This document shows, in pieces, positions 10,275-15,611 of a stretch of DNA of 64,000 nucleotides; the first letter of the stretch is position 1, and each line of letters opens with the position of its first letter. The stretch lies in assembly GCA_040954595.2 (NCBI GenBank), contig CM082595.2:6748193-6812192 (forward strand). Direction: 5' to 3'. The DNA comes from Balanoglossus misakiensis (lineage: Eukaryota; Animalia; Hemichordata). Under the pieces are notes generated by a model. The model made no database searches. It saw nothing but the letters and a program-made list of their open reading frames with translations, and was not told where the DNA came from. The translations under genes and the position numbers were made by a program.

Positions 10275-10624
10275 TTGTATAAATTGTTGCCAGTCTCAGT
10301 TGAAAAGATACATTATTGTATAAATTGTCGCAAGTCTCAGTTGAAAAGATACATTATTGTATAAATTGTTGCGAGTCTCAGTTGAAAAGATACATTATTG
10401 TATAAATTGTTGCAAGTCTCAGTTGAAAATATACATTATTGTATAAATTGTTGCAAGTCTCAGTTGAAAAGATACATTATTGTATAAATTGTTGCGAGTC
10501 TCAGTTGAAAAGATACATTATTGTATAAATTGTTGCAAGTCTCACTTGAAAAGATACATTATTGTATAAATTGTTGCAAGTCTCAGTTGAAAAGATACAT
10601 TATTGTATACATTGTTGCAAGTCT
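10275..10624. repeat. 41-bp minisatellite, ~8.5 copies
   Basis: Unit GTCTCAGTTGAAAAGATACATTATTGTATAAATTGTTGCAA recurs at 10293, 10334 ... 10621 with no spacers. Confidence 0.95.
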
Positions 10625-13754: not shown

Positions 13755-15611
13755 TTAACTTTCGTCATCCTCATCTTCATCTTCATCCTGGTTGATCTGG
13801 AAGTAACGGAGTTCGTAGGTCTCTTTGTTGGACGCCACCACACGCAACCAATCTCTCAGGTTGTTCTTCTTCAGGTACTTCTTGGTCAAGTACTTCAGGT
13901 ATCTGAAAATTGAACATAAGATTTATTCAAATCAGTATAGAGTATGCACTTTTCTAACACTCTAAACAAGTTTTAGGGAGTTTTAAAAAAAGAACTCCAT
14001 GAACTTGATAAAAAGTAAATTAATACGCAAAATCAAGGAGTACCACAGATAAAAAATTCTGAAAGGCATTATCCATAATTATATTATACCAGTATATTGA
14101 TGGTGTAAATCACACTATTTTATTGGTCGAGACACGACCCATGACTGTGATATATTCGTCATATATCACGCAAAACTCATAGTCAAAGAAAATGCCTTTT
14201 TAAAATGTTTTATGCAAAGTTTCAATATACTGGTATAATATAATAGCAATAAAACACCCCCAGCCGTGGTATACCACTCGATTTTGACCAGTTCAACTCC
14301 ATATACGCACTCGCTATCGCTCGTGCGTATATGTCGTGAACTGGTCAAAATCTCGTGGTATACCATGGCTGGGGGTGTTTTATTGCTTAAATGGTTACTC
14401 TTTCTTATTTTCCAGATTTCAATTTTGCAAATCCACAAACCTTTTCGAGAAGGAAATGTCAGCCTGAACAATGAGCTTGCTCTTGTTCCGTTCAATGGTC
14501 ACATGGTTGCCAAGGTTACTAGTCTTGCCATCCACCTTGATCCTGTCATGCAAGAACTGCTCCTGTTGCATCAAGGGAGGAGAAAAGGGGATATTGGTAC
14601 AAGGTTAGGGAAGGTGGCCCTAACCCAACCAGGGAAGATAGCCCTGTTCATTTTGCTAGGGAAGATCACCCTAGTCTGTACCGAACTAGGGAAGATAACC
14701 CTAATTCACAAAGACAGGATTAATAACTTGCAAAGGAAATAACCTCAATGAAGTTAACCTTTTAATGCACATTGCAAGTGTATAATTTTAATAAAGTATA
14801 TTTCTGTCATTTTTACCAATGGTTCTTTCTCAATAAATATGCTTGAAAAAAAATTAAATACCACACATTACTTTTATCCAGCCTTTCGCATAAATTTCAG
14901 GCTTTTCTAAAATAAATCCAATTTATAAAGAAGCAAATTTCCACAATCAAATGTGATCACTTACAAAGTTATTGGCGTCCATGATGCCATCTTCAACAGG
15001 ATGGGCGCAGTCAATGACAAACTTAAAAGTTTGCTTCTTCTTTTTGCCTTTGCTGACTGGCTTGCCTTTTTTCTGATGAAACAAAAAAGCAAACGTCTTC
15101 CTTGAGTGACAATATTTGACAGAAGGCACCTGTCCACTATCAAGGTTATTTCACAGGTCCCCCTTTCCCCTACCACTGTCATGGCCATACCACGTGGTGT
15201 TTCGCAATATGGCCACCCTTGTTACAGGATAGGCGTCACGTCACACGCCATGGATGTCACAATATCGCCTAGCTGCAGTACCGTAGCTAAAGGTTTTCTA
15301 TTCCGATCCAACCGACGAACAGGGAAAAAAGAAATAGAGCGTACGGTACTGCAGCTGGCGACCAACAAGATGCAATTAATGCACACCAAGCATCACGTGG
15401 TCTCGGCCTACCAGCTTGGGCGAATTTCCGTACCCAGTTGTATAAAATCCCGTTTTAACGACTAAATTACCAATTATATTTATTCTTCACAGCTCAGTGT
15501 CATATTGAATAACTTAAAAACAACATGGTTTCATCAAAGGCTATATTTCACAGTCAAAAGAGCGAAAAATCAACCAGATATTCAGAGCAGCGTGAAACTT
15601 ACTACTGGCAT
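13755..15611 (-). CDS. RPL22: 60S ribosomal protein L22 (eL22), 128 aa
   Basis: Exons 15611-15603, 15072-14965, 14562-14441, 13902-13755 (387 nt) give [57 protein letters not shown]...[58 protein letters not shown] on the minus strand at ~13687. Confidence 0.97.
14081..14241. mobile_element. MITE-like element with 20-bp TIRs (RPL22 intron 3)
   Basis: ATATTATACCAGTATATTGA ... TCAATATACTGGTATAATAT. Confidence 0.7.
14245..14387. mobile_element. Near-perfect palindromic MITE (RPL22 intron 3)
   Basis: AGCAATAAAACACCCCCAGCC.TGGTATACCAC ... GTGGTATACCATGGCTGGGGGTGTTTTATTGCT folds back over almost its whole length. Confidence 0.8.
14603..14703 (-). promoter_or_regulatory. Array of four stem-loops in RPL22 intron 2 (putative RPL22-binding splicing-regulatory element)
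   Basis: On the pre-mRNA: UAGGG-uuaucuu-CCCUA, CUAGGG-ugaucuu-CCCUAG, CAGGG-cuaucuu-CCCUG, GGUUAGGG-ccaccuu-CCCUAACC. The structure is seen directly; the function is inferred. Confidence 0.7.

Follow-up and report, generated by a model that had tools for sequence, protein, structure and literature searches.

The RPL22 gene in the window (by which we mean the whole 64-kb stretch of DNA that was analyzed) carries four hairpins near the 3' end of its second intron. Judging from their sequence, their conservation, and the splicing signals within them, there is a good probability that these hairpins are a conserved eL22-binding element that would switch the gene's own pre-mRNA to an upstream poison acceptor.

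The RPL22 gene and its second intron

The gene lies on the minus strand, and its coding part has four exons:

15603..15611, minus strand: RPL22 coding exon 1 (Met-Pro-Val), part of the open four-exon translation
14965..15072, minus strand: RPL22 exon 2, which ends in phase 0
14563..14964, minus strand: RPL22 intron 2, 402 nt, GT..AG, phase 0
14441..14562, minus strand: RPL22 exon 3, matched with 0 differences by a contig of run X3
13755..13902, minus strand: coding part of RPL22 exon 4, including the stop codon

When joined, the four exons translate into an open 128-aa eL22, and exon 3 finds proteins of Pfam PF01776 in a protein match. A contig of RNA run X6, which is from another organism, skips the same 402 nt of intron 2. 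In run X3 (RNA-like), a contig has its first base exactly where exon 3 starts and continues unbroken into exon 4. Two upstream forms could produce this, but assembled contigs cannot show transcript starts, so we do not count it as evidence. None of the assembled contigs of run X3 lies on intron 2 (this covers contigs, not reads), and runs X4, X5, and X6 match only the exons or the intron-3 repeat described below, besides small pieces at low depth. In a tree of exon 3, which has 41 columns only and from which L003, L059, and L070 were left out, the window's row is nearest to amphioxus and cartilaginous fish rows, without support; in a comparison over three exons, amphioxus has the best score.

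Several other features of this region were seen. Just 5' of the start codon, at about 15634-15621 on the minus strand, there is a pyrimidine run, which is what one would expect of a 5'-TOP transcript start. Intron 3 contains two adjoining inverted-repeat elements (14078-14392), with arms of 51 nt at 94% and 23 nt at 100%; they reach a depth of 1e5-4e5 in DNA run X1 and are matched by contigs of other runs as well, and they are a very high-copy MITE-like repeat. Intron 1 contains an inverted repeat whose 15-nt arms match perfectly and are separated by 56 nt (15271-15356), and one contig of run X1 skips 15329-15406, so this may be a polymorphic insertion. Elsewhere in the window, at about 10300-10600, a tandem repeat with a unit of about 41 nt is visible as repeated short ORFs.

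Four hairpins near the 3' end of intron 2

The first-pass annotation had reported four hairpins on the minus strand, and we found each of them where it had been placed:

14684..14706 (core 14703-14687), minus strand: hairpin 1, loop UUAUCUU
14656..14674, minus strand: hairpin 2, loop UGAUCUU
14630..14646, minus strand: hairpin 3, loop CUAUCUU, with a compensatory C-G outer pair
14603..14625, minus strand: hairpin 4, the most stable, loop CCACCUU

As had been described, all four have a G-C closing pair (G on the 5' side and C on the 3' side) and a 7-nt loop that ends in UU. The pattern GGG-N4-CTT-CCC has four matches in the 64-kb window, all of them within the hairpin cluster, as compared to a mean of 0.14 and a maximum of 2 in 100 shuffles. 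Folding of 14560-14760 was proposed as a check on the hairpins, and all four do form (-62.5 kcal/mol, z -2.77; 1 of 200 shuffles was as good). When the sequence is folded in the context of exon 2 to exon 3, the core pairs of hairpins 1-4 have probabilities of 1.0, 0.68, 0.68, and 0.79, respectively. A weak fifth hairpin that had also been suggested does not hold up: its pair probability in the exon context is 0.0, it has no covariance-model match, and the other allele of the sample differs at 14744 and 14746.

The linkers were said to be unrelated, which is not wholly accurate. Hairpins 1 and 3 have a 23-nt stretch in common, at 87%, that reaches into the 3' linker, so local duplication of the unit probably contributed to the array. 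The array is not part of a genome-wide repeat, which had been named as a way for the original idea to fail: in DNA run X1 it has single-copy depth, versus 1e5-4e5 over the intron-3 repeat. Between the two alleles of intron 2 in one sample, none of the 20 listed differences falls within the 60 core positions (Fisher p 0.036); in hairpin 3, the other allele differs at a variable position of the loop (14639). No Rfam family reaches its gathering score at the hairpins (the best score nearby is 14.4 bits, where 50 are needed).

The unit is conserved at the same place in many animals

To find orthologous introns, we scanned metagenome contigs with a pattern that consists of the acceptor AG and exon-3 codons only, so the scan is blind to the hairpin. 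It found at least 119 loci at the intron 2 acceptor; among the 119 listed, two (L003 and L059) are not RPL22 and four have less than 120 nt of upstream sequence. The unit is present in 46 of the 119 loci listed and in 24 of 65 exon-3 peptide groups, across several animal phyla, which bears out the expectation that the hairpins would be found in orthologous introns. Carrier loci among the matches listed have 1-3 copies each. With the window included, there are 83 units in the 23,263 bases directly upstream of exon 3, whereas the remainder of the DNA examined, 264,340 bases on the sense strand, has 2; two more distant hairpins of L010 pass the unit filter of this count. As in the RPL22L1 switch, the hairpins are at the 3' end of the intron and precede the E-x-F/Y-L exon 3, and among the DNA examined the unit was found only in intron 2 of the RPL22 family.

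The carriers include stony-coral loci (L005, L007, and L119, whose exon 3 is identical to that of Stylophora or Porites at 37-38 of 40 positions). By exon-3 identity and the tree, they also include an ascidian (L031), a bivalve (L109), and a locus that groups with a centipede (L041). Further carriers belong to several other animal clades, and three are vertebrate loci that we take to be of the RPL22L1 type, in part from the match of L101 to human primers. A covariance model built from 34 units, with L101 excluded, finds the L101 hairpin at an E value of 0.0003.

Among the loci listed, the unit is absent from vertebrate RPL22 (L040 and L047), from insect-type loci (the L013 group and the L027 group), from one animal clade of 14 loci and four other animal loci, and from all 38 loci outside the animal clade. 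A search of 33 sources with the covariance model likewise gave no clear unit for loci of the insect type, for vertebrate RPL22, or for non-animal loci (the best score was 17.5 bits, outside the intron end). Because 33 of the animal-clade loci listed have no unit, the element is dispensable in some lineages. The element probably goes back to the common ancestor of corals and bilaterians; following the vertebrate duplication, RPL22L1 kept it, while RPL22 likely lost it.

A few loci depart from the usual arrangement. L010 (122-233 and 601-630) has a pair of units whose loops are 6 nt long and which are located 440-530 nt upstream of exon 3, as well as a long-loop version of the unit near the acceptor, and L030 and L058 show possible long-loop relics. 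L063 (871-911), a non-animal RPL22 locus, has two matches to GGG-N4-CTT-CCC about 370-390 nt downstream of the start of exon 3; their outer pairs are C-U rather than U-A, and they are weak with the covariance model (14.5 bits).

Of the 44 distinct units, 37 have a 7-nt loop, with the consensus YYAGGG-N4-(C/A)UU-CCC-URR. All 37 of these loops end in UU, which was not selected for; the G-C closing pair, present in 34 of 34 aligned units, was. The outer pairs were not required by the selection either (the inner four pairs were selected by the filter and are uninformative), and it is in them that covariation, which the first-pass annotation had proposed to check, is seen. The outer pairs of the 34 units show 31 two-sided changes, versus 11.0 in shuffles; none of 500 shuffles was as high, and every slid control was lower. 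For example, pair 4-20 of the unit changes from U-A to C-G twice and is never broken. On the other side, G-U pairs on the sense strand outnumber those on the antisense strand by only 13 to 6. The copies within an array are not independent of each other, and neither are related species, so the covariation should be read as support and not as a probability.

A predicted alternative acceptor in the first hairpin

The relevant signals around hairpin 1 are as follows:

14719..14723, minus strand: TTAAT (A at 14720), which is the putative branch point for the alternative acceptor and has a pyrimidine-rich run after it; placed by inference rather than mapped
14702-14701, minus strand: predicted poison acceptor AG, in hairpin 1
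14688-14686, minus strand: in-frame stop codon TAG in hairpin 1, which is codon 5 of a 138-nt extension

There is no other AG in the 24 nt before the AG at 14702-14701. Use of this AG would add 138 nt to the message, of which the fifth codon is a stop that lies 245 nt ahead of the last junction. The same arrangement recurs in other lineages. Among 17 lineage representatives, 10 have the branch-point consensus at a distance of 17-21 nt upstream of the AG in their first hairpin. The corresponding figures are 2 of 20 for later hairpins and 20 of 332 for background YAG sites. The range of 17-21 nt was chosen after inspecting the data, and the representatives are a hand-picked set in which some lineages are related to each other. 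With a wider window of 15-30 nt, the consensus is present for 10 of the 17 first hairpins versus 55 of 332 background sites (p 1e-4). In all 17 representatives, the acceptor in the first hairpin would lead to a premature stop, at codon 5 in 13 of them: where the loop has 7 nt, four codons separate the acceptor from the UAA, UAG, or UGA of the 3' arm.

Neither the AG nor the stop codon is necessarily maintained for splicing. YYAG is kept in all hairpins, first and later alike, and what fixes the AG may therefore be protein binding or pairing of the stem; the stop codon is an automatic consequence of pairing with YYA.

The equivalent AG is seen in use in L101, a fully spliced mammalian record of the RPL22L1 type in which exon 2 is joined to the GG of a hairpin's 5' arm. 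This junction lies 67 nt before the normal acceptor, and a comparison with L050 indicates that the acceptor that was used is the AG of the first hairpin. By its branch-point consensus, pyrimidine run, UAG-G, and stop codon, hairpin 1 of the window is a candidate poison acceptor of this RPL22L1 type. (The L101 sequence, at 1-461, includes the 67-nt poison extension and derives from the unproductive isoform, either as a cDNA or as a retrocopy.)

Two other candidates were considered and set aside. Other AGs in intron 2 (14727 and 14842) would lead to early stops too, but they have no cross-species support. Skipping of exon 3 (122 nt) would shift the frame, but nothing points to skipping.

The last hairpin overlaps a likely branch point

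At the other end of the array, the signals for productive splicing are:

14608-14604, minus strand: predicted productive branch point CTAAC (A at 14605), in the 3' arm of hairpin 4
14563..14591, minus strand: polypyrimidine tract and productive acceptor CAG, with no AG between hairpin 4 and the acceptor

In the window, no other consensus branch point lies 15-40 nt before the productive acceptor, and the same is true of 16 of the 17 representatives. The predicted branch A is 43 nt from the productive acceptor, which is at the far end of the usual range. In 13 of 16 arrays, the stretch from the last hairpin to the acceptor is free of AG. Also, the 3' arm contains U-R-A in 9 of 11 last hairpins versus 6 of 20 other arms (p 0.008). 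These observations suggest that the last hairpin likely buries the putative branch point of the productive acceptor. The idea of a masked branch point fits the vertebrate loci poorly, because the last arm of the three loci of the RPL22L1 type is CCCUAGU, which is a poor match to a branch point.

Probable binding by eL22 and similarity to rRNA

The binding motif of eL22 is described as a G-C closing pair with a loop of 5-9 nt and a U at its 3' end (PMC4838235; Jansen preprint). PMC5755908 renders the motif from SELEX as NNNNG-N7-CUNNN, with a U directly after the closing C; the units have a C at that position, and the wordings of PMC4838235 and of the Jansen preprint are without this U.

The loop of hairpin 1 is also found in rRNA. 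A eukaryotic LSU rRNA locus contains G-UUAUCUU-U, with the identical 7-nt loop on a stem of A-U, G-C, A-U, and G-U pairs; we examined five LSU rRNA-like loci (L122-L126, contigs from a viral collection), of which one (L126) was confirmed by Rfam. We take this stem-loop to be helix 57. On the ribosome, eL22 contacts rRNA helices 57 and 59 (PMC13630204), and the rRNA stem-loop that it contacts fits the SELEX motif (PMC4838235). The 28S segment bound by RPL22 in human CLIP is described as lacking small stem-loops (Fan et al., bioRxiv 2024.08.15.608201), so rRNA mimicry is something that we infer.

Published binding data for the family are mixed. Two CLIP studies, in the portions cited, report no RPL22 peak on RPL22L1 (PMC12035866; bioRxiv 2024.06.15.599158). 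The RPL22L1 protein does not bind its own intron hairpins (bioRxiv 2024.08.15.608201), so self-binding by a member of the family is not automatic. Given the match of all four hairpins to the consensus, we think that the array likely binds surplus, ribosome-free eL22.

Known systems

The closest known system is the human RPL22L1 gene. Its intron 2 has juxtaposed stem-loops with the L22 consensus and an alternative acceptor (Jansen preprint), and two stem-loops overlap the splice site of variant 3 (Fan et al., bioRxiv 2024.08.15.608201). This site shows RPL22 CLIP enrichment, its use depends on RPL22, and the variant is stabilized by inhibition of nonsense-mediated decay (bioRxiv 2024.08.15.608201). 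The human primers printed in the same preprint contain the unit, with the loop UUCUCUU. The window's array is thus the counterpart of a published element: it lies in the same intron of the same gene family and has the same unit, with juxtaposed hairpins over an alternative acceptor and a premature stop. The first-pass annotation knew of no description of such a four-hairpin array, which overstates the novelty, as juxtaposed hairpins of RPL22L1 intron 2 are in print and four is simply the top of a range of 1-4. Still, there are differences. The window has four units, and the gene that contains them is an RPL22 gene of the invertebrate type, which makes its own product, rather than a paralog, the likely regulator. 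In the first hairpin of the window, the 7-nt loop leads at once to an in-frame stop; in the mammalian record, the loop is 6 nt long and the 67-nt extension shifts the frame. The RPL22L1 papers, in the portions cited, mention neither branch-point masking nor conservation outside vertebrates.

MDM4 shows that multivalent arrays exist. Its intron 6 has three stem-loops with the L22 consensus (Jansen preprint), and, as in the window, these are a cluster of consensus hairpins near a splice site, which in MDM4 is needed for RPL22-dependent unproductive splicing. Unlike the window's array, they lie downstream of a 5' splice site, the outcome is exon skipping, and the target gene is unrelated.

In yeast, eL22 limits the expression of its own family via the introns of RPL22A and RPL22B, at the level of splicing (PMC4838235, PMC5755908, PMC13630204). 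The yeast elements are long alternative stems unlike the SELEX motif or the rRNA loop, and they act at the 5' splice site and by a later stall; they are not homologous in sequence to the window's hairpins. In particular, the long stem of RPL22B with its conserved 23-nt core (PMC13630204, PMC5755908) has no match in the window, which has short independent hairpins instead. L10ARE of RPL10A/rpl-1 (PMC4937301) is similar in that an intronic element, found from invertebrates to vertebrates, allows a ribosomal protein to switch its own splice site and produce an isoform subject to nonsense-mediated decay. It differs in that it serves another protein, is a single 39-nt element, acts on 5' splice sites, and is unrelated to that protein's rRNA site (PMC4937301). 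Finally, Drosophila RpL22 autoregulates through circRpL22 (Ng 2024, via PMC11883427 and PMC11508205). This is again autoregulation together with repression of a paralog, in an invertebrate, but it works via a circular RNA, and the insect-type loci listed are without the hairpin unit.

How the hairpins might control splicing

We propose the following mechanism. eL22 would bind the G-C-closed 7-nt loops, which resemble the LSU rRNA loop. Binding would stabilize hairpin 4 and so hide the branch point CUAAC from U2 snRNA. The spliceosome would then take the branch point at 14720, which stays open, together with the AG that comes next, within hairpin 1, or else the intron would be retained, and the resulting transcript would be removed by nonsense-mediated decay. 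If there were little free eL22, then the hairpins would breathe and productive splicing would win. The first-pass annotation had read the array as an autoregulatory splicing switch. That reading is supported, in that the hairpins are conserved, covarying, and not a repeat; what it missed are the predicted poison acceptor and stop codon in hairpin 1 and the predicted branch point in hairpin 4.

It is also conceivable, if unlikely, that the hairpins sense eL22 but the output is a plain block to splicing (retention and decay) or a change in transcript stability, with the acceptor in hairpin 1 unused. Masking of the branch point would suffice for this by itself, and retention of intron 2 likewise gives an early stop. 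Yeast RPL22B is regulated by inhibition of splicing (PMC4838235), and if eL22 clamped hairpin 1, then it would bury the AG of that hairpin too. However, retention does not need a branch-point consensus at a fixed distance upstream of the first hairpin, and L101 shows the first-hairpin acceptor in use.

We consider it quite improbable that the hairpins instead bind another splicing factor (e.g., an SR protein or a zinc-finger protein that binds double-stranded RNA) independently of the level of eL22. In favor of such a factor are the two negative CLIP results (PMC12035866; bioRxiv 2024.06.15.599158), and knock-down of SRSF4 lowers the human poison variant (bioRxiv 2024.08.15.608201). Against this, knock-down of RPL22 abolishes the human switch, and RPL22 is enriched on the site (bioRxiv 2024.08.15.608201). 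The unit also has the consensus selected by eL22 and a loop in common with LSU rRNA, and among the DNA examined it is confined to intron 2 of the RPL22 family.

It would be more surprising still if the units were palindromes that act in DNA, as sites for a transcription factor, or pieces of a small RNA hosted by the intron. Invariant 4-bp arms could be a dimer site, and introns of ribosomal protein genes often host snoRNAs. However, the UU of the loop is always on the sense strand, the position of the units is tied to the 3' splice site while their copy number and spacing vary, and the Rfam families all stay below their thresholds at the site. The idea of a neutral repeat, short tandem or mobile, for which one could cite the partly common linker of two units, is refuted: coral, ascidian, bivalve, and vertebrate loci have the same unit in the equivalent position. 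It is also at odds with the single-copy depth and the covariation, so its probability is practically nil.

Novelty and significance

Elements of this kind were already known from human RPL22L1, and autoregulation of splicing by ribosomal proteins was known from yeast RPL22 and from RPL10A. In the passages of the literature examined, the element is not described outside vertebrate RPL22L1, and neither the lack of it in vertebrate RPL22 nor its overlap with a branch point is mentioned. PMC10735318 makes no mention of RPL22. What appears to be new is the anatomy at the two ends of the array, with a predicted alternative acceptor and a codon-5 stop in the first hairpin and the last hairpin over the likely productive branch point.

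In cancer biology, the mechanism by which RPL22 represses RPL22L1 and switches the splicing of MDM4 is an open question. The published papers, in the portions cited, give the hairpins and the isoform but no mechanism, and the conserved anatomy makes one directly testable. Also, the range of hairpin copy number, from 1 to 4, is a natural series for studying cooperative sensing of a free ribosomal protein.

More broadly, we lean, by a little more than even chances, towards viewing the array as a pan-animal cassette that mimics rRNA and is at least as old as the split between corals and bilaterians. Its 20-nt unit would combine an eL22 site with a poison acceptor and stop codon (in the first hairpin) and a mask for the branch point (in the last), and, for finding genuine splicing targets of eL22, it would be a much sharper motif than the loose SELEX consensus. 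As only RPL22L1 would have kept the cassette after the duplication, the repression of RPL22L1 by RPL22, which is relevant to cancer, would be an ancestral leftover. If this is true, then it answers a question raised in PMC4838235, namely whether repression of a paralog is an inherited or a convergent trait. In animals, one of the duplicates would have inherited an ancestral self-regulation, and the known control of human RPL22L1 by RPL22 would be a relic of that ancient self-regulation.
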